A DNA stretch of 63,440 bases, the filler included, from Basidiobolus ranarum (taxonomy: Eukaryota), in NCBI GenBank assembly GCA_040143965.1. It is 51 parts of 51 records of this genome, joined end to end, with 100 filler letters (N's around TTAATTAATTAA, not from the genome) between each part and the next. Parts side by side here need not be neighbours in the genome. Positions count along the whole stretch, not along the records: positions 8,767 to 9,917 come from JASJQH010006220.1; 50 more parts are not named here. The stretch is one strand, 5' to 3'. Shown in pieces: positions 1 to 62,201 of the stretch. Each line of letters starts with the position of its first letter. Positions within the stretch are counted from its first letter, which is position 1. A program made the position numbers and the translations under genes. Under the pieces are notes generated by a model that worked only from the letters and a program-made list of their open reading frames with translations, searched no databases and was not told the DNA's origin.

Positions 1-1153
1 GCGACATCCAAGTATTGTTGCCATTGTTCAGATGCAGCAATAATTGCTAAAAGTTCCTTGTCATAGATGTCATAGTTGATTTCTGTGGCAGAGAACTTTC
101 TTGAGTAAAAGGCAACAGGGTGCAGTAAGTTGTCATCATCAAACTGTGATAGTACTGCCTCTAGAGCAAAGTCAAATGCATCAGTTTCAACAATAAATGG
201 CTTGTCTAGCTTGGGATGTGCCAAGATTGATGCTGAGGTAAAAGCACTCTTTAAAGTTACAAATGCTTGTTGGCAAAATGGGTTCCAGCCAAATGGGAGT
301 TCTTTTTTTGTCAGGTTTGTTGATGGAGCAGATATTTTGGAATAGTTCTTAACAAACCGTTGGTAAAAGTTTGCAAATCCAAGGAAAGATTGGACATCTT
401 TCACATTCTTGGGAATATCCCAAAACAGAACAGATTCAACCTTCTTAGGGTCGATGGAGATGCCTGATGGGCTGATGTTATATCCAAGGAATTCAACTTG
501 AGCTTGATCAAATTTGCATTACTCAAGTTTAGCATAAAGCCCAGAGGTTTTCAACTTTTCTAGGACTTGAGAAACATGAATATTATGTTCTTCTTGAGAG
601 CTTGAGAAGATCAAGATATTGTCAAGGTAGATTACCACAAATTGATCAAGATACTCTCTGAAGATATCATTCATCATGTGTTGAAAGACTGCAGGGGCAT
701 TAGTAAGTCCAAATGGCATGACATTGTATTCAAAGTGTCCATAGTGAGTTTGAAAGGCAGTTTTCCATTGGTCTCCAGGTTTGATTCTTACAAGATTATA
801 AGCACCTCTTAGATCAATCTTTGTAAATACCTTGGCTGAAGCAAGCTGATCCAAGAGTGAGTTGATTAATGGCAAGGGGTACCAATTTTTGACTGTAATG
901 CTATTTAGGCCTTGATAATCAACACAGAGACAGAGGGATCCATCCTTTTTCTTAACAAATAAGATTGGAGAGCCTGCTGGGGACTTTGAATGTTGGATAA
1001 ATCCTTTCTCCAGATTTTCTGCAATATACTCTTTCAGAATCTTGAGTTCTGGCTGGGTCAGCCCATATATAGGCCCAAATGGTGGTTGTTTTCCTTCTTG
1101 TAGATCTATAGGGCAATCATATGGGTGGTGAGCTGGGAGTATATCAGATTTCT
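1..1153 (-). mobile_element. Ty3/Gypsy pol fragment (RT into RNase H), degenerate
   Basis: [36 protein letters not shown](D)IL; downstream ETDAFDFAL and PVAFYSRKF; internal stops. Confidence 0.95.
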
Positions 1154-1253: not shown

Positions 1254-2406
1254 ATTAAGTTCTGCCAAACTGTTGGTAACCAAGCCGAGCTTTACGTCGA
1301 CCGTGGTCAAAAAATTCTTTGCGCACCTGTAGACTTTGCGATCGTAGTAGGATGGAAAGCAATCATCAAGACAATCTTCCCTAAGGTTATTGATGGAGAT
1401 CTTCTTCGATTGGTCCATCTTTCTAATGGATTTAGATTGATCGAAGGTGCATCACTATTAAAACGTGGAGATGTTGTCGATACCGTTTCAGAAATCAAGT
1501 CCATTATCAACACTGAATCTGGAAAAATCGTAGAAGCCAAGGGTGTTGTTATTCGTAACAACAAGCCTGTCATGGAAGTGTCCAGCAAATTTTTGTATCG
1601 TGGCAACTTTACTGATTATGAGAATACTTTCCAAAAAATTGTTGAAACTCCAGTCCGTGTTGTTTTGCAAACTGAAAAGGACATTGCTATCTTAAAAGCC
1701 AAGGAATGGATGAACTGGGAGGAAAATGCCCCTGAAATCACTCCCGGTGCTGATGTTACTTTCCGTTTGAACAGTTTGTTGAAGTACAAGAATAATACTT
1801 TGTATTCTTCTGTTCACACCACCGGTACTGTTACTATGAAGATTTCCACAAAGGAAGTCGTTCAAATCGCTGCTGTTGAATATGAAAGTGGCGAATCCCA
1901 TGGCAATCCTGTAACTGAATATCTCAAACGTGTTGGTCAACCTATTGAACAAGCAGTTAATTTCTCCAATGGCGGGTACTCTGTGATGCCTCAGGGTGAT
2001 GAATTTTCATCTGTATTCAACGCTCCTGCTTCTAATGAGCCTTATGCCATGGTTTCTGGGGATTTCAACCCTATTCACGTCAACCCTTACTTTGCGGACT
2101 TGGCTGAATTACCTGGTACCATAACCCACGGTATGTGGACTAGTGCCTCCACCAAGAAATTCGTTGAAATATTTGCTGCTGACAACTGTCCTCAACGTAT
2201 TACTGCTTATGATGTAAACTTCCAATCTATGGTGCTTCCAAACGATCGCCTTGAGATTAAACTCTCTCATATTGGCATGAAGAATGGAAAGAAGATCATC
2301 AAAGTCGAAACCATCAATCAAAATAATGTCAAGGTTATTGAAGGTATTGCCGAAATTGATCAGCCTGTTACCTCATATGTCTTTACTGGTCAAGGATCTC
2401 AAGAAC
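1254..2406 (+). CDS. FAS1: Fungal type I fatty acid synthase, beta-subunit region (dehydratase/MaoC into MPT start); internal fragment open at both contig ends
   Basis: One open frame from 1254: APVDFAIVVGWKAIIKTIFPKVIDGDLLRLVHLSNGF, SGDFNPIHVNPYFA, LPGTITHGMWTSAS, YVFTGQGSQE. Confidence 0.97.
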
Positions 2407-3759: not shown

Positions 3760-4678
3760 GCAGCAGTTAAACTGATTCTTGGATATTTGAAGGGGACAAT
3801 TTATCTGGGATTAAGATACACATATTCTTATGAGAATAAGGAGCTAATTGGGTTTAGTAATGCAGATTGGGGATTTGATATTGAGAACAGATGATCCATC
3901 ACTGTATATATCATTCTCTTCAGTGAAGTAGCCATATCTTGGAATAGCAGGAAAAAACCCACCATGGCACTTTCAACAACTGAAGCAGAGTAAATAGCAG
4001 CATCATACAAAACAAAGAAGGCAATGTGGTAAAGATGTTGAAATTAGCTTTGCCTAAACACCTATATAGTCATATATAGCTTAGTAATTAGTCATCTTAT
4101 AGTTCACTAAGATATTTTCCATTATTCTCAATTAGAACTTACTTGGAATATTCTTACCAACTTAAAAGTTCTTGGATATGTAAATTTTTCAAACTTGTGC
4201 TAGAAGCCCTAAACTTTGCACACATATTCCTGAGACCTTCCTTAACACATTCTACATATTTGTTTGTTTACATCTTGACAAAACTATAAATGTCAACTTT
4301 CCACCTAATAAATCAATAAGTGAGAACAACCAATTCCTCTAATTCTCCAAACCACTTCCAACAAGATGCCAAATACTTTAACAAAAGGAAACTGTCCAAA
4401 GACTAGGGCATTTTTCAAAGTTCACCCACCATGATTTTCAAGGATAATCCAAGTTGTATTTCTTTAGCTAAAAATGCCAAATATAATGCTAGAAGTAAGC
4501 ACATTGACATTCAACATCACTTTGTTTGGGAAGCTATTGAGAGTAAGCACATCCAATTAGAGTACTATCCAACTGGGGACATAATTGCTGACATCCTTAC
4601 CAATCTATTACACAGGCCAAAATTTGAACAATTAAGATTTAAGTTAGGAACAAGATATATGAATATTAAGTTGAGTGC
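3760..4678 (+). mobile_element. Ty1/Copia RT-end/RNase H fragment interrupted by a solo LTR
   Basis: ISWNSRKKPTMALSTTEAE, KDNPSCI, RSKHIDIQHHF, ADILT; frame restored when 4036-4388 is removed. Confidence 0.93.
4036..4383 (+). mobile_element. Solo LTR, Copia family LTR-A (348 bp)
   Basis: TGTTGAAATTAGC...TTTAACA; 5-bp TSD AAAGA/AAAGG; internal TATAAA. Confidence 0.93.
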
Positions 4679-4911
4679 TGTTAAAGTATTTGGGAGCCTG
4701 TAGGAAGTGGTTTGGAGAATTAGAGGAATTGGTGGTTTTCACTTATTGATTTATTGGGTAGAAAGTTGACATTTATAGTTTTGTCAAGATGTAAACAAAA
4801 TAACGTATAGAATATGTTAAGGAAGGTCCCAGGCACATGTGTGCAAAGTTTGGGGCTTCTAGCACAAGTTTGAAAAATCTATATATCTGAGAACTTCTAA
4901 GTTGGTAAAAA
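4679..4911 (-). mobile_element. LTR-A, partial, inverted, inserted at the host element's PPT
   Basis: Starts TGTTAAAGTATTTGGGAGCC (reverse complement of LTR-A 3' end) right after AGTTGAGTG. Confidence 0.88.
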
Positions 4912-8666: not shown

Positions 8667-8927
8667 NNNNNNNNNNNNNNNNNNNNNNNNNNNNNNNNNN
8701 NNNNNNNNNNTTAATTAATTAANNNNNNNNNNNNNNNNNNNNNNNNNNNNNNNNNNNNNNNNNNNNGACTGGAACCTATCTTGCCAACAAGCATTTGTAA
8801 CTTTAAAGAGTGCTTTTACCCCAGCACAAATCCTGGCACATCCCAAGCTAGACAAGCCATTTATTATTCAAACTGATGCATCCAACTTTGCTCTAGGAGC
8901 AGTACTATCACAGTTTGATGATGATAA

Positions 8928-9209
8928 TGTTGAAATTATTTAGGTAGAAATATTGGTCTGGCCAGGATTTGAACCTGGGACCTCCTTCAATGTAGTAAGG
9001 TGCTCTAACCACTGAGCTACCAGTCCTTGTATGCTATGCCTATATTGCTAGGGAACCTTAACCTAGTCTGTCAATGTATGGTACTTTGGCATTTCAACTA
9101 TAAAAGCAACTGATTGGCCTTAGACTTTGTGTTCAGATGCAGTCACCATACTCCATATTTTCCCCTTTAGGAATTACTGCTTGTACCACAAGTCACCAGA
9201 CTTTCAACA
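8928..9209 (+). mobile_element. Solo LTR (282 bp, family LTR-E) containing a tRNA-like sequence
   Basis: Perfect 8-bp TIR TGTTGAAA...TTTCAACA; flanks GATAA/GTCAA are each one change from GACAA in the uninterrupted homolog (contig 1); TATAAAA at 9099. Confidence 0.88.
8954..9026 (-). pseudogene. tRNA-like sequence (73 nt) inside the LTR; isotype unreliable (nominal anticodon ACA)
   Basis: GGACTGG-TA-GCTC-AGTGGTTA-GAGC-A-CCTTA-CTACATT-GAAGG-AGGTC-CCAGG-TTCAAAT-CCTGG-CCAGACC-A; perfect D and T stems, one mismatch each in acceptor and anticodon stems; A and B boxes present. Confidence 0.88.
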
Positions 9210-10017
9210 GTCAACTTACTGCACCTTGTTGCCTTTTACTCAAGAAAATTCTCTGCCACAGAAATCAACTACAACATCAATGACAAGGAACTTTTAGCAA
9301 TTATTGCTGCATTGGAACAATGGCAACAATACTTGGATGGAGCAAATCACAAAATCACATTTTATTGTGATAATATCAATCTTCAGTATTTTAGTACAAC
9401 CAAAGTTCTCAACCATCATTGAGCAAGATGGTCCTTATTTCTTGCCAGTTTTGATTTTGTGATTACATTTTGACCAGGTAGCCAGCAAGGAAAGCCTGAT
9501 GCCTAATCATGTAGAGCAGAATATCAGCCTAAAGGATGGGATGAGGACTTTGGCCAGCAAAATACTTCCTTAATGAAGCCCCACCAACTTCAAATTAGTG
9601 CAACTGCCCTTTCTCTTCCTAGTTCAAGCACATTCCATTAAGACATCTGCACACTCCAATCTGAAGATCCATTGTTAATATTAATCAACAAAGCCCAGGA
9701 AACACCCAAAGACCTCTAAAGCTTAAACCTGTACCACCATTTCTCTATCAACAATGATCTCTTGCTTTATAAGAAGCACCTTTACATTCCAGACCAAGCT
9801 TCCAGACTCAAATTCTAGCCGCAAACCCACAACTCTCTACTGGCAGGACACTTTGGTGTTGCCAAATCATATATGTTGGCATCCAGGGATCATTGATGGC
9901 CCAAAATGCTTGCATTTNNNNNNNNNNNNNNNNNNNNNNNNNNNNNNNNNNNNNNNNNNNNTTAATTAATTAANNNNNNNNNNNNNNNNNNNNNNNNNNN
10001 NNNNNNNNNNNNNNNNN

Positions 10018-11268: not shown

Positions 11269-12419
11269 TTGATTGGCAACTGTGGCTTGCCACAGACCTG
11301 GTACAAGTGGAAAACAGTTGTCAATTGTATGACTTATAATCCTTCAGTAATTAAACTACCTTCATGTCCAAATGGTTATTTGGCTTTCACCAGTGAACTG
11401 AAAAACCTGAAGTCAGGTACTGTTTGCACACAATTGACAATCACTGAATCAGGTAAATATTGTTCATACTCAGCTTACATACCATCAATTCCCTGTCTTA
11501 AAGTTGTGATGAAATCACCCAAAAATATATTAGTGATCCAATACCAAAGTACTCACCATAACGCTGATGATATTACCAATATAATGGATGGATATCACTA
11601 CCAGAATCTGAAAAGTCAAGGTTTATTTGAGAACACATATGATCATGCATTTGCATTGGTTCTGGATGGTTTCTCACTAAACAAATATACCACCAGAAGA
11701 ACTTGGTGAGGAATAATTTAAATTAGCTTAAATTTTTTCCTTCTGTATGATATAAGAGTCATACTGTTTTGATACTATCCATCATATCTGGACCTAAATC
11801 ACCAGTGCTTATAGATAGTTTCTTGGAGCTTTTGATTTCAGAGTTTGAACAGTTATTTATTGGGGTTCTGATGGGTGAATATTTTATTAATGCTAATATC
11901 ATTTTATGCATTGGTGACACTCCTGCCATCAGTAAACTTGGAGGTTTTGTGGCCACAATGCACTATCTGGCTGTAGATTCTCTCAAACCAATGGAGTTTA
12001 CTCTATCAGGCATATGCATTACTACTATCCAAATGAAACACCAAACTCCATGATTTTACCATAAAGAGCCTAGTCAGATATCAATATGCTGACTGATATC
12101 AATTTACCAAATAGTCAGTCTAACATCAAACTTGTTATTAGCCATAAGCCTAAGATTATATTGCTAAAGGGGATCAGCTGGAGCCAGAGCTTGCCATTAG
12201 GCACTATGAACCTGCCATTCAACAATATTTCAATTCTACTTACTCAGCTATATAGTGGAAAATTTAATTTGAATGAGCCATTTGAGATAGAAAAAATGTT
12301 TGAATTGATTGGGAAAATGCATCAAAACATCAAGAAACCATCATATTTTACCAGGACTCCCATCAATATCCACTCATATAGGTATTTATTCAAATGCAAA
12401 GACTGAAAGTATTGGATTT
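11269..12419 (+). mobile_element. CMC/EnSpm Tnp2-family transposase core, frameshifted
   Basis: CPNG, LVLDGFSL, IISGPKSP, SFLELLI, IGDTPAISKLGGF. Confidence 0.92.
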
Positions 12420-12519
12420 NNNNNNNNNNNNNNNNNNNNNNNNNNNNNNNNNNNNNNNNNNNNTTAATTAATTAANNNNNNNNNNNNNNNNNNNNNNNNN
12501 NNNNNNNNNNNNNNNNNNN

Positions 12520-13670
12520 GCAATAGTTTTACCAGTATCGAACCGAGGAGGATCGAACAATGGTAAGATACCAAGAATCTGCCAACCATTAGCGGGTGTA
12601 TACCAGGCAATACCTAAACTTCTGAAACCACGATCGGCGAACTCTGACACAACATCATCATACTTCTGAGCAATAGCGGGATCCAATGTTCCAGCCTTTT
12701 GAACCATACGGAGCACAAATGGTGGGGCTCCCTTGACAGCAATGCATGTGTTACCTTCGGGATCGATTACCTTAGCAGTGACCATCTTAGAGACGGGATC
12801 GAAAGGTTGGAACTCTAGCATACGATATTCTCTCATTCTTCTACGAGCTTGAGGATACTTTCCAAGGGCCTTGACAACAGCTTTATCAATAGCATCCATA
12901 CCCTTCTTCTTACGTGAAGCGGCCAATGCTGAAACAAACATCAACATCTCATCGTCAACTCCTTCAACACAGTAGGGATCATGAAGAGTAAGCTTATTCT
13001 GGGTGAGAGTACCGGTCTTATCTGAGCACAAGATTTCAACACCAGCAAGAGATTCGATAGCAGTCAACTTTTGATCATTAGCTTGCTTCTTAGCCAAGAA
13101 AGCAGCACCAACAGCCATAGTAGTGGTTACTACAGCTGGAAGACCGACTGGAACACCAACTACTGCGATGATCAAAGCATACTCCAAAAGCTTAACGATA
13201 CCGAGAGAACGATAGAAACCGGAACTCCAAATGATTAACAACCACAAGATGACGAGCACGAGAAGAACGGTACCAATATTGTTGATAACCTCAGTGAAAT
13301 GTCCAACACCATTCGATTTACCAGCAAGAGTAGCAGCACGTCCAACGAATGTCTTTTCACCAGTAGCAGTAACAACAGCATAGCAACTACCACGCTTGAT
13401 AGCCGAACTACTGAACAAATCATCACCAGGTCCCTTAGATGCTGCCAATGACTCACCAGTCAAAGCAGCTTGATCGACCTGTAGACGTGAATCTTCACCA
13501 AGAATACGAGCATCAGCGGGGACAATACAACCATCTTCAACCAGAATGATATCTCCTGGAACAAGAGAGTTGGCCTCAACTGGTCCTTCCTTTCCGTCTC
13601 TTACAGCAACAGCAGACAAGGCGAGTGTCTTCTTCAACTGATCAATAATATTACCGGCTTGATATTCTTG
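12520..13670 (-). CDS. PMA1: Plasma-membrane H+-ATPase (P3A), internal fragment open at both ends
   Basis: [65 protein letters not shown]. Confidence 0.97.
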
Positions 13671-13770: not shown

Positions 13771-14921
13771 CGTCATGCCAACCAAGCTACTGATTACATT
13801 GAACAGCCTAATAATGAGAACCATTTGGAAGGCAAACCAGATGAGTTAATCTTTACATACCCTAACAGTAGTCACCCATTCGCAAGTGACTACATCCACC
13901 CAGGAGAAATTAAGAATATATGCAATGATTTCCCATATCGTATCCAACGTCCTCGAAACTTTACTCTACCTTTAGGCCCCTCAGATGTTGTTAAGATCTT
14001 TGTTTGGAGACAGCAGATGTACAACGACAATGTTCATTGGGAAGAACAAACGGAGATGTGCCCATTTCCTCCAGAGCTCCAGAATTTCTTCGATAACTAT
14101 CGGAAATTACATGCTAGCGAGAAGATTGTTTGGAAAACAGGGTATGCGCCATGCTGGTTGTGGACTCACACTGAAGGTACCAATAGCCTGAATATTTGCA
14201 AAAACGGGATCAAGTATACTCTTACATCCAATTATACCGAATTCAGAGATGCTGATATCCTATATATGGACTATCCCTTCTATCACGGATTGTATAAAGC
14301 CCCATATTGGCATCTTGAGTTAATGCCACCTCGATTGGCACATCAGCGATGGATCTTCAAATTTGGCAGAGAGTCTATCGGATACTACTCATTTGTGTCT
14401 TTAGCTTCGTTTTTGCAGCAATTTGACTTTACTTTGGGGAGCCCCAAAGAATTGTTTGATCTTTCATATCCATTGCAGGAAATCTCCGAGGACTATGCCT
14501 TGGAGCTTGCTCACATCACCCCAGGTATTCCGCTTGATGCCAAACCTACCAACTATATTGCTTGGATGGTAGGCAATTGTTCACCTAAAAACAATCGCAA
14601 TGAAATCATCCAGGAGTTGATTGAGAAGATTAATGGCCATTCTTACGGCAAATGTCACAACAACAGAGAGATCCCCAAGGCAATTATTGAAAAGTATCAA
14701 AGCTACCCAGCTGACTGGGAATGGATCAAAAACAACACCCTTCGCCCTTACCCATTTTCCTTGGTGGTGGAGAATTCCAACTGCATCGGATATGTCACTG
14801 AAAAGATTTATGATGCTCTCAGCAGCGGTGCCATTCCGGTTTATTACGGTGCCTCTGATATAGACTCCTATGTACCAAACAACAGCTTTATCAATATGCG
14901 AGACTTCTCTACCATTGATGA
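13771..14921 (+). CDS. GT10-family alpha-1,3-fucosyltransferase-like protein, open at both ends
   Basis: AWMVGNC...NNRNE, HSYGKC, FSLVVENSNCIGYVTEKIYDALSSGAIPVYYGA, PNNSFINMRDF. Confidence 0.92.
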
Positions 14922-25016: not shown

Positions 25017-26163
25017 CCAATCAATTTAAACTTTGATCCTATCTTAAATGGCTCATTCATATTGAATTTACCCCTATATAGCTGAGTAAGTAGTATTGCA
25101 ATGTTGTTGAATAGTAAGTGCATAGTGCCTGATGGGATGCTCTTGCTCCAGCTGATCCTCTTAAGCATTATAATCTTAGGCCTATGGCTATATCAAGTTT
25201 GATGTTAGACTGACTATTTGGTGAATTGATATCAGTGATGATTTTGAAATCTGACTGGGCTCTTGATGGTAAAATCATGGAGCTTAGTGTTGTATTTGGA
25301 TAGTAGTAATGTGTATGCCTGATAGCGTAAACTCCATTGATTTGACAAAATCTATGCAACAGAGTGCATTGTGCTTGTGAAAACCTTCAAGTTTACTGAT
25401 GGCAGGAGTGTCACCAATACATGCAATGATATTAGCTTTAATAAAATATTCACCCATCTGAACCCCATTAGATAACCATTTAAATTCTGCAATCAAAGGC
25501 TTCAAGAAGCTATCCATAAGCACTGGTGATTTAGGTCTAAATATGATGGATAGTATCAAAATATTATGACTCTTATAGCATTCACAAGGAGGAAGATTTA
25601 AGTTGATTAAAATTGTTGGCCAGCAAGCCTTTCCAATGGTACATATGTTTAGTGAGAAACCATCCAGAGCCAATGCAAATGCATGATCATACATGTTCTC
25701 AAAGAAACCTTGACCTTTCAGATTCTGGTAGTGATATCCATCAAGTATATTGGTAATACCATAAGCTTTATGGTGAGTACTTTGGTATTAGATCAATGAT
25801 CTATATTTGGGTGATTTCATCAAACCTTTAAGATAGGGAATCAATGGTATCAAAGCAAAATTTGAATAAAATTTACCTGATTCAGTGATTGCCAATTGTC
25901 TACAAACAGTATATGACTTCAGGTTTTTCAGACCACTGGTGAAAGCCAAACAACCCTTTGGACATTAAGGTAGTTTAATTACTGAGGGATTATAGGTCAT
26001 ACAATTGATAGTATTTTCCACTTGTATCAGGTCTGTGGCAAGCAACAGTTGCCAATCAACTGTGGTAAAAGTGTAATAGAACCAATGAACACCTGGTTGC
26101 TAAGATTGGATTAAACTCTCCACTCCTCAATAATCAAAGCTGCTTCCTATACAGTAAGTGTTA
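25017..26163 (-). mobile_element. CMC Tnp2 transposase core, degenerate
   Basis: ALALDGFSL, CWPTILINLNLPP, IGDTPAISKL, GTMHLLFNNI. Confidence 0.93.
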
Positions 26164-38881: not shown

Positions 38882-39229
38882 TGTCAAAGTATTTGGGAGC
38901 CTGTTGGAAGTGGTTTGGAGAATCAGAGGAATTGGTGGTTTTCACTTATTGATTTATTGACTAGAGAGTTGACATTTATAGTTTTGTCAAGATGTAAGCA
39001 AACTAACGTGTAGAATATGTTAAGGAAGGTCCCAGGAACATGTGTGCAAAGTTTGGGGCTTCTAGCACAAATTTGAAAAATCTATATATCTGAAGACTTC
39101 TAAGTTGGCAAAAATGTTCTAAGTAAATTCCGATTGAAAATAATTGATAATATCTTAGTGAATTATAAGATAACTAAGCACTAAGCTACATATGACTATA
39201 TAGATGTTTAGGCAATGCTAATTTCAACA
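38882..39229 (-). mobile_element. LTR-A, 3' LTR of an element nested in another Copia RT (38717-38881)
   Basis: Preceded on minus strand by PPT TTGAGGGAGAG (39230-39240); defines LTR-A orientation. Confidence 0.93.
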
Positions 39230-43589: not shown

Positions 43590-43747
43590 NNNNNNNNNNN
43601 NNNNNNNNNNNNNNNNNNNNNNNNNNNNNNNNNTTAATTAATTAANNNNNNNNNNNNNNNNNNNNNNNNNNNNNNNNNNNNNNNNNNNNAACCGAAACAT
43701 TCCTAAGTTACCTAACACAACGGAAAAGAAAAAATACAATGTCAAAA

Positions 43748-43818
43748 TGCATACTCGGGGAATCGAACCCCGGTCTACCGCGTGGCAGGCGGTAATTATA
43801 CCACTAAACCAAGTATGC
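43748..43818 (-). tRNA. tRNA-Gly(GCC)
   Basis: GCATACT...ACCGC-CTGCCAC-GCGGT...GGTTCGATTCC...AGTATGCA; T-run follows. Confidence 0.96.
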
Positions 43819-43944
43819 AACTTAATAGTTGCCGAGTCGGATGAATATTACTCATTATCATTGAGAAGTAGACGTTACAATAGGCACTACCGTAACATGA
43901 TTAGTTACATTCAAATATCATTCAACTTGCTGTAAATACAAAAC

Positions 43945-44017
43945 GGGCGTATGGCCAAATGGATAAGGCGCCTGACTACGGATCAGGAGATTCCAGGTTC
44001 GATCCCTGGTATGCTCG
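43945..44017 (+). tRNA. tRNA-Arg(ACG)
   Basis: GGGCGTA...CCTGA-CTACGGA-TCAGG...GGTTCGATCCC...TATGCTCG. Confidence 0.96.
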
Positions 44018-44230
44018 TTCTATTTTGCATCGCATAAACGTTTTACATTCTATACAGCCTAGTGTTGTAGATTCTCCAGGAAAGAAAAGAATGTTGGGAA
44101 TACTCATTCTTTTCATTGCACAGTGTATCGGATTATCAAAAGCTAGAAATTCTACCGAACTGTACATTTGCTCTCACTTCTTATCTGATGTCACAGTAAA
44201 CTACAGATGTAAAGATATTCAAAAATAGTT

Positions 44231-44302
44231 TTCCCCATCGGGGAATCGAACCCCGGCCGTCTCGGTGAGAGCGAGAAATCCTAACCACTGGACCAATGAG
44301 GA
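44231..44302 (-). tRNA. tRNA-Glu(CTC)
   Basis: TCCTCAT...TCTCG-CTCTCAC-CGAGA...GGTTCGATTCC...ATGGGGAA. Confidence 0.96.
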
Positions 44303-44603
44303 ATTGTTAATGATATTGAAACGTAAATGATTATTATCTTTCACTGAATATACTCACTCGGTATTTCTATGATGGAATAGTTAAGTCCTTTTCATGTACC
44401 ATTGAGTATGTATTTGTGACCTTGACATTGTAACAAAATGCTTAAACGTGACATAAAATAACATGAGAGTGACTGAATATAGAGCATCTAAGATAATAAC
44501 TGGGTTCAATGAGGGTGTATTAACAACAATGAATCTCCATTATATAGCAACGCAAACTTTTGGTTAGTAATAAATACGTGACAATCAATACGCGTACTAT
44601 AGA

Positions 44604-44677
44604 GCTCGCATAGCTCAGTTGGTTAGAGCGTGGTGCTAATAACGCCAAGGCCGCAGGTTCGACCCCTGCTGTGAGCA
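44604..44677 (+). tRNA. tRNA-Ile(AAT)
   Basis: GCTCGCA...TGGTG-CTAATAA-CGCCA...GGTTCGACCC...TGTGAGCA; T-runs follow. Confidence 0.96.
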
Positions 44678-46174: not shown

Positions 46175-46229
46175 CTCCGAAGAGACTGCGACCTGAACGC
46201 AGCGCCTTAGACCACTCGGCCATCTCACC
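46175..46229 (-). tRNA. tRNA-Leu(CAG), 3' end cut off by contig edge
   Basis: GGTGAGATGGCCGAGTGGTCTAAGGCG-CTGCG-TTCAGGT-CGCAG-TCTCTTCGGAG (long variable arm). Confidence 0.92.
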
Positions 46230-50177: not shown

Positions 50178-51040
50178 AAAACAACTACAATGGTTGAGAA
50201 CTTAGGTTGCACTAAAATACGGAAGATTCTTGTGATCACAACAAACTGTGATTTTGTGATTTGCTCCATCCAAGTATTGTCACCATAGTTCAAACACAGC
50301 AATGATTGCTAATAGCTCCTTTTCATAGATGTCATAGTTGATTTCTGTGGCTGAGAACTCCCTTGAGTAAAAGGCAACAGTGTGCAGTAAGTTGTCAGCA
50401 TCAAACTGTGATAGTACTGCTCCCAGAGCAAAGTCAGATGCATCAGTTTTAGCAATAAATGGCTTGTCTAGCTTGGGATGTGCCAGCATTGGTGCTGAGG
50501 TAAAAGCACTCTTTAAAGTTACAAATGCTTGTTGGCAAGATGGGTTCCAGCCAATTGGGAGTTCTTTCTTTGTGCTGTTTGTTAATGGGGCAAATATTTT
50601 GGAGTAGTTCTTGACAAACTGTTGGTAAAAGTTTGCAAATCTAAGGAAAGTTTGGACATCCTTTACATTCTTGGGAATATCCCAAGACAGAACAGATTCA
50701 ACCTTCTTAGGGTCCCTGGAGATGCCTGATGGGCTGATGTTACATCCAAGGAATTCAACTTGAGCTTGATCAAATTCACATTTCTCAAGTTTAGCATAGA
50801 GCCCAAAGATTTTAAACTTTTCTAGGACCTGGGAAACATGAATGTCATGTTCTTCTTGAGAGCTTGAGAAGACAAAGCTATTGTCAAGGTTGATTACCAC
50901 AAGTTGGTCAAGATACTCTCTGAAGATATCACTCATCATGTGTTGAAAGACTGCAGGGGCATTGGTAAGTCCAAATGGCATGACATTGTATTCAAAGTGT
51001 CCATAGCAAGTTGATAGGGCTGTTTTCCATTGGTGTGCGG
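50178..51040 (-). mobile_element. Ty3/Gypsy RT-RNase H
   Basis: [38 protein letters not shown]. Confidence 0.95.
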
Positions 51041-58789: not shown

Positions 58790-58802
58790 AGGGCTCATAA
58801 CC
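58790..58802 (-). promoter_or_regulatory. Primer-binding site GGTTATGAGCCCT (half-tRNA-iMet type)
   Basis: Directly follows LTR-A ...TTTAACA; complementary to the tRNA-iMet anticodon arm AGGGCUCAUAACC. Confidence 0.9.
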
Positions 58803-59148
58803 TGTTAAAGTGTTTAGGAGCCTGTTGGAAGTGGTTTAGAGAATTACAGGAATTGGTGGTTTTCACTTATTGTTTTATTGAGTAGTATGTTGACATTTAT
58901 AGTTTTAGCAAGATGTAGACAAACTAACATGTAGAATATGCTAAGAGAGGTCCCAGGAACATGTGTGCAAAGTTTTGGGTTTAGCACTAGTTTGAAAAGT
59001 CTATATATCTGAGAACTTCTAAGTTGATAAATATATTTTAAGGAAATTCCAATAGAGAATAATTAATAATATCTTAGTGAATTATAGGATAACTAAGTAT
59101 TAAGCTATATATGGCTATACAGATATTTAGGCAATGCTAATTTCAACA
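58803..59148 (-). mobile_element. LTR-A flanked by PPT (59149-59160) and PBS
   Basis: TGTTGAAATTAGC...TTTAACA on minus strand. Confidence 0.93.
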
Positions 59149-59160
59149 CTCTCCCTCAAC

Positions 59161-59549
59161 TAAATAGATAGAGAAACTAATCCTAATAAGGGTCTTAATT
59201 TCTCAAATTTCTGTCTAGCTAATGATTTGGTTAATATATCAGCAATCAAATCTTTTGTAGAACTTTAAGTTATTTCAATAAAATTATTCTCTATTGTCTT
59301 TCTAATGAAGTGATGCTGAATATCTATATGTTTGCATCTACTATGAAACATGGGATTTTTAGCTAATTTGAGACAACTTTGCTTATCTTTAAATATTGTA
59401 GTTGGTGAATTTTGAAAATAACCAAAATCTGTAAGCAGCTTTCTTACACATATTGCTTCTTTTGTTGCTTCACAGGCAGCCATATGTTCTGCTTCTGTTG
59501 TTGAAAGTGCTACAGTAGGTTGTTTCTTTGAATTACAAGAAATAGCTAC
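59161..59549 (-). mobile_element. Copia RNase H (LTR-A family)
   Basis: SKKQPTVALSTTEAEHMA, KHIDIQHHFIR. Confidence 0.93.
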
Positions 59550-59823: not shown

Positions 59824-60962
59824 ATCTTTGCCCAGTGACTGTATCTGTCTGAGATCTGCCAGTGTGAGTTGATGCCGTAAGAATATATTAACAATATTGA
59901 CAAACAACTCCCAATGTTGCAAATACTTATTAGGCAGAAATCTTTACATGATTCCACTTGAATATATATAAGTCCAGTACTTCAAATCTTTCCATTTGAA
60001 TAAACACCTAGATGAGTGGGTATTGATGGGCGTCATGGTAAAATATGATGGCATCTTGACATTTTCAAGCATTTTCCCAATTGATTCAGACTTTGATCCT
60101 ATCTCAAATGGCTCATTCATATTGAATTTTCCACTATACAGCTGAGTAAGTAGTATTGGAATGTTATTGAATAGTAAGCTCATAGTGCCTAATGGGAAGC
60201 TCCAGCACCAGCTGATTCCCTTTAGCAACATAATCTTACGCCTATGGCTAATACTAAGTTTGATGTTAGACTGACTATTTGGTGAATTGATATCAGTAAT
60301 CATGTTGAAATCTGACCATGCTCTTGATGGTGTAATCATTAAGTTTAGTGTTGTATTTAGATAGTAGTAATGAGTATGCCTGCTACAGTAAACTCCATTG
60401 ATTTGACAAAATCTGCAGCAAGATAGTGCATTGGGCCTGTAAAAACCTCCCAGTTTACTGATGGCCGGAGTGTCACCAATACATACAATGATATTAGCTT
60501 TAATAAAATATTCACCCATCTGAACCCTATTAGATAACCATTGAAATTCTGCAATCAAAGGTTCCAGGAAGCCTTCGATAAGCACTGGTGATTTAGGTCC
60601 AGATTTGATGGATAATATCAAAACATTATGACTCTTATACCATTTACAAGGAGGAAGATTTAAGTTGATTAAAATTATTGGCCAGCAAGCCTTTCCAATG
60701 GTATATCTGTTTAGTGAGAAACCATCCAGAGCCAATGCAAATGCATGATCATGCAGGTTTTCAAAGAAACCTTTACTTTTCAGATTCTGGTAGTTGTATC
60801 TATCAAGTATTTTAGTAATACCATCAGCTTTATGGTGAGTACTTTGGTATAGGATCAATGATCTATATTTGGGTGATTTCATCAAAACTTTAAGACAGGA
60901 AATCAATGGTATGTAAGCCAAATATGAACAATATTTACCTGATTCAGTGATTGCCAATTGTG
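59824..60962 (-). mobile_element. CMC Tnp2 transposase core, longest open copy (337 aa)
   Basis: ALALDGFSL, CWPIILINLNLPP, GPKSP, FLEPLIAEF, IGDTPAISKLGGF, CCRFCQING. Confidence 0.95.
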
Positions 60963-61062: not shown

Positions 61063-62201
61063 TCTTAGCAACCAGGTGTTTATTGTTATCTTACACTTTT
61101 ATCACAGTTGATTGGTAACTGTTGCTTGCCACAGACTGGTAAAAGTGGAAAACACTTTCAATTGTATGACTTATAACCCTTCAGTAATTGAACTACCTCC
61201 ATGTCCAAATGGTTGTTTCGCTTTCACTGGTGATCCAAAATACCTGAAGTCATATACTGTTTGCACACAATTGGCAATCACTGAATCAGGTAAATATCAT
61301 TCATATTTGGCTTACATACCACTGTTTCACTGTATTAAGGTTTTGATGAAATCACCCAAATATAGATCATTAATCCAAAACAAAAGTAATCACTGTAAAG
61401 CTGATGGTATTCCCAATATACATGTTGGATATCAGTATCATAATCTGAAAAGTTAAGGTTTCTTTGCGAACATGTATGATCATGCATTTGCATTGGCTCT
61501 GAATGGTTTCTTGCTAAACAAATATACCATTGGAGAGGCTTGCTGGCCAATAATTTTAATTAACTTAAATCTTCCTCCTTCTGAATGGTATAAGTGTCAG
61601 AATATCTTGATACTCTCCATCATATCTGGTCCCAAATCACCAGTGTTTATAGCTAGATTCTTGGAGCCTTTGATTGCAGAATTTGAATGACAATCTAATG
61701 GGGTTTGAATGGGTGAATATTTTATTAAAGCTCATATCATTGTATGTATTGGTGACACTCCTGCCATCAGTAAACTTGGAGGTTTTTGCGGACACAATGC
61801 ACTATCTTGCTGTAGATTTTGTCAAATCAATGGAGTCTACTCTATCATGCATGCACATTACTACTATCCGAATACAAAACTAAACTCCATGATCTTACCC
61901 TCAAGAACCTGGTGAGATTTCAACATGATCACTGATATCAATTCCCCAAATAATTGGTCCAACATCAAGCTTGGTACTAGCAGTATGTCTAAGATTATAT
62001 TGCTAAAGGGGATCAGCTGGAGCCAGAGCTTCCTATTAGGCACTATGCACTTACTATTCAAAAACATTCCAACAGTACTTACTCAGTTGTATAGTGGAAA
62101 ATTCAATATGAATGAGCCATCAAGATTGGATCAAAGTTTGAACCATTGGGAAAATGCTAGAAAATGTCAAGATACCATCAAATTTTACCTGGACTTCCAT
62201 C
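61063..62201 (+). mobile_element. CMC Tnp2 transposase core, degenerate
   Basis: GDTPAISKLGGFCGHNALSCCRFC, GTMHLLFKNI. Confidence 0.94.

Follow-up and report, generated by a model that had tools for sequence, protein, structure and literature searches.

A clean 282-bp insert in the RNase H domain of a Gypsy retrotransposon of Basidiobolus ranarum contains a complete tRNA-like sequence. What kind of element was inserted at this locus, and does the tRNA-like sequence drive its transcription or travel in it as a passenger? We addressed both questions within the whole stretch of DNA in which the locus lies, 63,440 nucleotides of joined parts of assembly GCA_040143965.1, filler included (hereafter, the window; all coordinates are window positions).

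The window has a GC content of 34% and is a nest of transposons. One repeat is present in several copies with a mutual identity of 79-90% (e.g. 11269-12419, 25017-26163, 61063-62201 and 59947-60960(-)), and the ORF at 59947-60960(-) contains a Transposase_21 (tnp2/CACTA-type) domain. Interspersed among the transposons are pieces of host genes: a fragment of a fungal FAS1 beta subunit (1254-2405(+)), a plasma-membrane H+-ATPase (12519-13670(-)) and, divergent from the latter, an ORF resembling GT10 fucosyltransferases (13771-14919(+)). The ATPase fragment shares 79-90% identity with seven Basidiobolus meristosporus CBS 931.73 paralogues and 63% with the matches that come next, which places the window in the Basidiobolus lineage and speaks against a rust origin. 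Stretches of the form N44-TTAATTAATTAA-N44 recur approximately every 1250 bp (for example, at 8667-8766) and comprise 4400 N in all; they cut every long ORF and hide some LTR ends. None of them touches the region 8767-9917, in which the insert lies.

An LTR-type insertion with Copia-like termini

The limits of the insert are given by empty sites. Two paralogous Gypsy copies in the window, at 85-180(-) and 50345-50440(-), read ...GATGATGACAACTTACTG... without interruption; they are parts of the two further copies of this Gypsy region that self-comparison of the window delimits at 5-288(-) and 50190-50550(-). Because both paralogues run uninterrupted across the insertion point, the insert is exactly 282 bp long and its target was GACAA. 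The left and right copies of the 5-bp duplication are each one substitution away from this target (Table 1). Of 290 aligned sites, 14 have changes private to the host Gypsy copy, most of them transitions, and given this divergence the two changes in the 10 bp of duplication, where about 0.5 would be expected, are somewhat high but acceptable. A 287-bp insert without any duplication is formally conceivable as well. The flanks on both sides belong to the RNase H domain of a Ty3/Gypsy polyprotein.

The insert starts with TGTTGAAATTA and ends with TTTCAACA, which gives it TG..CA termini, and its 8-bp terminal inverted repeat, TGTTGAAA/TTTCAACA, is exact. Self-comparison of the 282 bp revealed no long direct repeat, and the insert is thus a single LTR rather than a whole TRIM. 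The terminal motif recurs a third time at 9091-9098, where ATTTCAAC is the complement of GTTGAAAT (8929-8936) and lies just 5' of the TATA box; given this copy, the LTR may be composite.

Table 1. Window coordinates of the 282-bp insert, its internal features and the interrupted Gypsy copy.
Feature	Position	Strand	Evidence
Solo LTR, 282 bp, TG..CA	8928..9209	+ (probable, from the Copia-type TATA motif)	Empty paralogous sites
Target duplication, left copy GATAA	8923..8927	.	Empty-site comparison
Target duplication, right copy GTCAA	9210..9214	.	Empty-site comparison
Terminal 11-mer TGTTGAAATTA; first 8 bases pair with 9202-9209	8928..8938	+	Common to 7 other LTR starts
3' arm of terminal inverted repeat, TTTCAACA	9202..9209	+	Inverted-repeat search
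tRNA-like cloverleaf, 73 nt, anticodon ACA, no CCA, no T-run terminator	8954..9026	-	ARAGORN, Rfam
A box TAGCTCAGTGG	9009..9019	-	Matches TRGCNNAGTGG
B box GGTTCAAATCC	8965..8975	-	Matches GGTTCRANNCC
TATA-box motif AACTATAAA(A), common to Copia LTR-A and LTR-D	9096..9105	+	114 nt from LTR 3' end
Host Gypsy RNase H, N-terminal half	8767..8927	+	RT_RNaseH_2 profile 1-52
Host Gypsy RNase H, C-terminal half, to stop codon	9210..9419	+	RT_RNaseH_2 profile 55-97

The terminal 11-mer links the insert to Copia elements of the same window. TGTTGAAATTA occurs there exactly eight times, always at an LTR start: in five copies of an LTR of approximately 350 bp (LTR-A), in one LTR-D, in one third LTR and in the 282-bp element. 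The polarity of LTR-A and LTR-D is known because their copies follow a polypurine tract. The ORF preceding the LTR-A copy at 39229(-) has as its nearest Atlas clusters 'Gag-pol polyprotein' and 'Copia protein' (score 0.96); no Pfam domain was found in this ORF. ORFs with Copia-type RVT_2, rve (integrase) and gag_pre-integrs domains are present elsewhere in the window. Mobilisation by Copia is indicated by the 11-mer common to LTR-A and LTR-D, together with the position of LTR-A beside a Copia-like pol ORF and a polypurine tract.

The LTR-A copies show two further arrangements. The copy at 58797-59168(-) is preceded by a polypurine tract and immediately followed by a PBS-like GGTTATGAGCCC, which suggests two tandem Copia elements sharing one LTR; we take this PBS-like sequence to be of the initiator-Met anticodon-loop type. 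The copies at 4036-4389(+) and 4679-4911(-) are inverted relative to each other and approximately 290 bp apart.

The exact 8-bp inverted repeat at the ends of the insert and its short length would also suit a MITE, that is, a small non-autonomous DNA transposon with a tRNA-like core. Such an origin is, however, very improbable in view of the TG..CA ends, a terminal 11-mer identical to Copia LTR starts beside polypurine tracts, the Copia TATA motif and a 5-bp duplication of the length typical of Copia. To our knowledge, Transib is the only DNA-transposon superfamily with 5-bp duplications, and its ends differ. The evidence supports an insertion of LTR type, with termini like those of Copia and a target duplication of 5 bp.

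The first-pass annotation of this DNA had described a single copy of a 282-bp insertion in Gypsy RNase H with 8-bp inverted repeats, a decayed 5-bp target duplication and a TGTTGAAATTA start like that of Copia LTR-A and LTR-D. The empty sites, the inverted-repeat check, the profile matches and the exact 11-mer at LTR starts bear out this description, and the 63-kb window contains no further copy of the element (n = 1).

The tRNA-like module

The 73-nt sequence recognised as a tRNA by ARAGORN occupies LTR positions 27-99 and sits 26 bp from the 8928 end. It scores 55.5 bits against the Rfam tRNA model, for which the gathering score is 29 bits; the window's four real tRNA genes reach 59.5-65.8 bits. 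Both internal promoter boxes match their consensus sequences (Table 1). The B-box consensus has only five matches in the 63-kb window, one in each of the four real genes and one in the module. Thus, the first-pass proposal of a 73-nt tRNA fold with A and B boxes, beginning 26 bp from one end of the insert, is upheld by ARAGORN, by the Rfam score and by the two consensus matches. The minimum free energy structure is also a cloverleaf, but with a z-score of only -1.1 thermodynamic folding is uninformative.

Several features set the module apart from a functional gene. Two of its stem pairs are mismatched (3-70 and 31-39), the anticodon is ACA rather than a standard one, and no run of T4 or longer is found within 60 nt downstream, whereas all four real tRNA genes of the window (4/4) have a T4-T6 run within approximately 20 nt. 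The discriminator base is followed by ATA, not CCA, and in the absence of a CCA the module is gene- or precursor-derived rather than a copy of a mature tRNA. Judged by its sequence, the module is a pseudo-tRNA, Cys-like by anticodon.

The four real genes (Gly-GCC, Arg-ACG, Glu-CTC and Ile-AAT) are clustered at 43747-44677 on alternating strands. A further A-box match, TGGCCGAGTGG, is located at 46212-46222(-), where it adjoins an N block; it may mark a fifth tRNA gene cut by that block. In addition, the 11-mer CCTGGGACCTC of the antisense tRNA (8974-8984) recurs in one LTR-A copy (58947-58957), and a 10-mer version of it occurs in another. This sharing could be a coincidence or a faint tRNA-like remnant in LTR-A; a rough chance estimate is approximately 0.03. 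We judge it to be near chance.

We also considered that the tRNA reached the locus in a separate step, as a retro-copied pre-tRNA or a fragment of a tRNA-derived SINE that later entered a tRNA-less LTR, in which case it would be a one-off. The sole direct repeat bracketing the tRNA, the 6-nt ATATTG at 8950-8955 and 9042-9047, fits this history in that it encloses the tRNA together with a 15-nt leader (caatat...acaa), which resembles the regions upstream of the real tRNA genes of the window. However, by our own estimate, chance alone would produce approximately 0.6 such 6-mer repeats in the flanks examined. Furthermore, no SINE tail, A-rich or other, is present around the module, just 26 nt of the insert lie beyond the tRNA, and the 63 kb contain neither a tRNA-derived SINE nor a second copy of the module sequence. 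We therefore hold a two-step origin to be improbable. The first-pass annotation had likewise noted neither a SINE tail nor a separate target duplication around the tRNA and had taken the tRNA to be integral to the element. The first of these points stands, the ATATTG repeat being at chance level, and the empty-site limits agree with the second: the module belonged to the inserted unit, or at least lies within it.

Searches of larger collections were carried out with three queries. A pattern consisting of the LTR terminus, a gap and the B-box arm gave no matches in metagenome and viral contigs, collections that may lack this fungus and do not inform on copy number. A 24-mer of the acceptor and T arms gave none in metagenome contigs and prokaryote genomes, a result with no bearing on copy number. 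Finally, a 34-aa ORF over the tRNA/LTR junction (9009-9110, +) had no matches among 1.84 billion representatives, where such short non-coding ORFs are rarely called.

Polarity of the LTR and the role of the tRNA

The 9-mer AACTATAAA occurs nine times in the window versus 1.7 expected, a count that none of 100 shuffles reached. The eight occurrences outside the 282-bp element fall in LTR-A (six) and LTR-D (two), all of them in LTR sense and 93-102 nt from the LTR 3' end. The ninth lies on the plus strand of the element, at a similar distance from its 3' end (Table 1), with TATAAAA at 9099-9105. When the LTR is read on the minus strand, a T4 run (the complement of 9102-9105) falls in U3 ahead of the tRNA. 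The strand and position of AACTATAAA and the T4 run in the opposite reading favour plus polarity and, hence, an antisense tRNA. On these sequence features, we consider plus polarity likely, with the tRNA probably antisense in U3 and divergent from the TATA box, which is approximately 70 bp away.

The remainder of the LTR was compared in both orientations. Local alignments with LTR-A, LTR-D and the third LTR gave scores within the shuffle range. The polarity assignment depends on a single 9-mer and where it lies, because overall similarity to LTR-A and LTR-D is at shuffle level both ways. Two candidate arguments were discarded. The proposition that the element is simply a copy of LTR-A or LTR-D into which a tRNA was inserted was rejected, its alignment scores being no better than those of shuffles. 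The 11-mer terminus was dropped as proof of plus orientation: the ends of LTR-A are near-palindromic and, by eye, the 8928 end is about equally like the 5' end of LTR-A and the reverse complement of its 3' end.

The antisense placement had already been read in the first-pass annotation from a TATAAAA-defined orientation, and the strand of AACTATAAA and its distance from the 3' end favour that reading. The same annotation had proposed that the family uses Pol III for its transcription. This part of the proposal is not supported: it needs a sense tRNA, whereas the AACTATAAA motif and its position, the sole orientation-informative feature, favour an antisense one. The silencing barrier offered in that annotation as an alternative is a hypothetical role. 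Two points speak against plus polarity: the absence of a terminator just 3' of the tRNA, which suits a sense, Pol III-driven element, and the sense tRNA that the published precedent, Helenus, implies.

Elements with tRNA-derived sequence in their LTRs have been described as Helenus, a group of TRIMs in which the A and B boxes are conserved (Kojima 2024, Biology 13:119, PMC10886601). According to the accessible text of that study, fungal Helenus families occur in Pucciniales (113 families), Agaricus, Coprinopsis and Amylostereum; they show 5-bp duplications, apparent mobilisation by Copia and frequent solo LTRs, and a PBS of the initiator-Met anticodon-loop type is dominant among them (PMC10886601). 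The tRNA of Helenus is usually non-functional and is proposed to act as a Pol III promoter (TRIMp3), a concept that implies a sense tRNA (Kojima 2024, PMC10886601). Fungal tRNA-bearing TRIM LTRs with 5-bp duplications, which the first-pass annotation had called Helenus, are thus correctly attributed, as far as the accessible text goes.

Read on the minus strand, the 282-bp element could itself be a true solo LTR of the TRIMp3 type, mobilised in trans by Copia, with the sense tRNA as its internal Pol III promoter. Its transcript would start near 9026, cross the LTR's final 99 nt and continue into the PBS and the internal region. There is fungal precedent for this combination: tRNA-like LTRs that retain the A and B boxes, show 5-bp duplications, have Copia partners and are often found as solo LTRs (Kojima 2024, PMC10886601). 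The boxes of the module are intact, its 3' side lacks the terminator present in the four real tRNA genes, and the LTR termini are compatible with both orientations. The PBS-like GGTTATGAGCCC found 3' of an LTR-A copy would, if our assignment to the initiator-Met type is right, be of the kind that dominates in fungal Helenus. However, minus polarity turns AACTATAAA into an antisense coincidence, for which approximately 0.004 occurrences are expected per orientation per 282 bp (scaled from the window count), and this at the canonical distance from the opposite end. It also places the T4 run in U3 upstream of the tRNA, where it could halt Pol III within the 3' LTR, short of R. On balance, we regard the minus-strand reading as unlikely.

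Our preferred account, to which we assign a probability of about 0.5, is that the insert is the solo LTR of an element mobilised by Copia integrase, with its own TATA promoter and carrying a captured pseudo-tRNA in its U3. The parent retroelement could have been a TRIM or autonomous. The plus-strand order of the LTR would be the integrase end TGTTGAAATTA, a U3 of approximately 170 nt, the TATA promoter AACTATAAAA and an R/U5 of approximately 105 nt ending in CTTTCAACA. The gene-derived pseudo-tRNA, with intact A and B boxes, would lie antisense in U3, 26 nt from the 5' edge. The whole 282 bp would have integrated as one unit into Gypsy RNase H with a 5-bp duplication, and LTR-LTR recombination would then have left the solo LTR. 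Element RNA would be made from the Pol II TATA promoter. The tRNA would be a captured passenger in U3, the insert-tolerant part of the LTR that is duplicated into both LTRs. A working analogy is provided by retroviral 'double-copy' vectors, in which both LTRs acquire, and tolerate, a tRNA cassette inserted into U3, but these are engineered constructs and not a natural family.

Because it is probably antisense in U3, the tRNA looks like a captured passenger or a TFIIIC site rather than the Pol III promoter of the element. Its intact boxes could still recruit TFIIIC and Pol III, which would create a divergent Pol III unit reading out of the 5' edge of the LTR. It is doubtful, in our estimate, that this unit has become a property of an LTR family of the Basidiobolus lineage, that is, a U3 with a conserved, active tRNA-type Pol III unit divergent to the Pol II TATA box and with the antisense tRNA under selection. 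In such a family, TFIIIC bound to the tRNA might form a chromatin barrier and so keep the LTR promoter open; alternatively, the tRNA might be a source of Pol III antisense RNA across the polypurine tract and internal region of full-length copies.

Relation to known elements and implications

The closest known counterpart of the insert is Helenus, with which it shares several features. It contains tRNA-derived sequence within an LTR (55.5 bits, inside an insert defined by empty sites), and the A box (TRGCY..YGG) and B box (GGTTC) are kept. Also shared are a tRNA that is unlikely to be functional, a 5-bp duplication, Copia-type partners in the same genome and the solo LTR form. The host lineage differs: Basidiobolus belongs to Zoopagomycota, whereas fungal Helenus is described, in the accessible text of Kojima 2024, from Pucciniales and three Agaricomycetes. 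Unlike in Helenus, the tRNA is probably antisense to the promoter polarity of the LTR, an arrangement from which no Pol III-driven element would result. The comparison with Helenus is by description, and with respect to the TRIM structure of that group (two LTRs, PBS, PPT, less than approximately 1 kb) the present element is known as a solo LTR.

Other systems resemble the insert in part. The TRIMs Cassandra of plants and Ajax of nemerteans also have a small-RNA-gene module inside the LTRs of non-autonomous elements; according to the accessible text, their modules are 5S rRNA-derived and in sense orientation, and Cassandra is transcribed from its 5S part (PMC10886601), whereas the present module is tRNA-derived and probably antisense. 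The same text states that 'not a few' LTRs in Repbase contain tRNA-like parts (PMC10886601), and on that account a tRNA piece as an LTR passenger is a known occurrence. The insert resembles these ordinary LTRs in carrying such a passenger; unlike their fragments, its tRNA is complete, with a score like that of a real gene. With tRNA-derived SINEs (SINE2) it has in common a head that resembles a tRNA and contains A and B boxes. In contrast to SINE2, there is no body or tail, and the tRNA lies within an element that has TG..CA ends and a 5-bp duplication, the 3' end of the tRNA being 26 nt from the element's edge.

As Helenus has already been described (PMC10886601), this kind of element is not new. 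The host lineage may be new, and so, probably, may the antisense placement. The words 'antisense', 'opposite' and 'Zoopagomycota' are absent from the accessible text of Kojima 2024 (PMC10886601), and the other literature that we found on Helenus as a TRIM merely cites that study. In the literature accessible to us on TRIMp3 and on Basidiobolus retrotransposons and tRNA, we found no report of tRNA-bearing LTRs in the Basidiobolus lineage.

With a single decayed copy at present, the value of the finding is mainly for annotation. An odd 'tRNA-Cys-ACA' prediction is best regarded as originating from a repeat. In rust fungi, Helenus copies are stated to inflate tRNA gene predictions (Kojima 2024, PMC10886601; accessible text), and, if copies elsewhere in the genome confirm the family, they would do so in this genome as well. 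The probable antisense placement is also a caution, in that a tRNA in an LTR does not alone make a Pol III-driven element. Should a selected, divergent Pol III unit prove to be real, it would constitute a new architectural variant of LTR elements bearing small-RNA genes, and the first in Zoopagomycota. More generally, confirmation by genome copies would extend tRNA-bearing, Helenus-like LTR elements from Dikarya to an early-diverging fungal lineage and would favour the view that LTR elements have captured Pol III genes repeatedly and independently.
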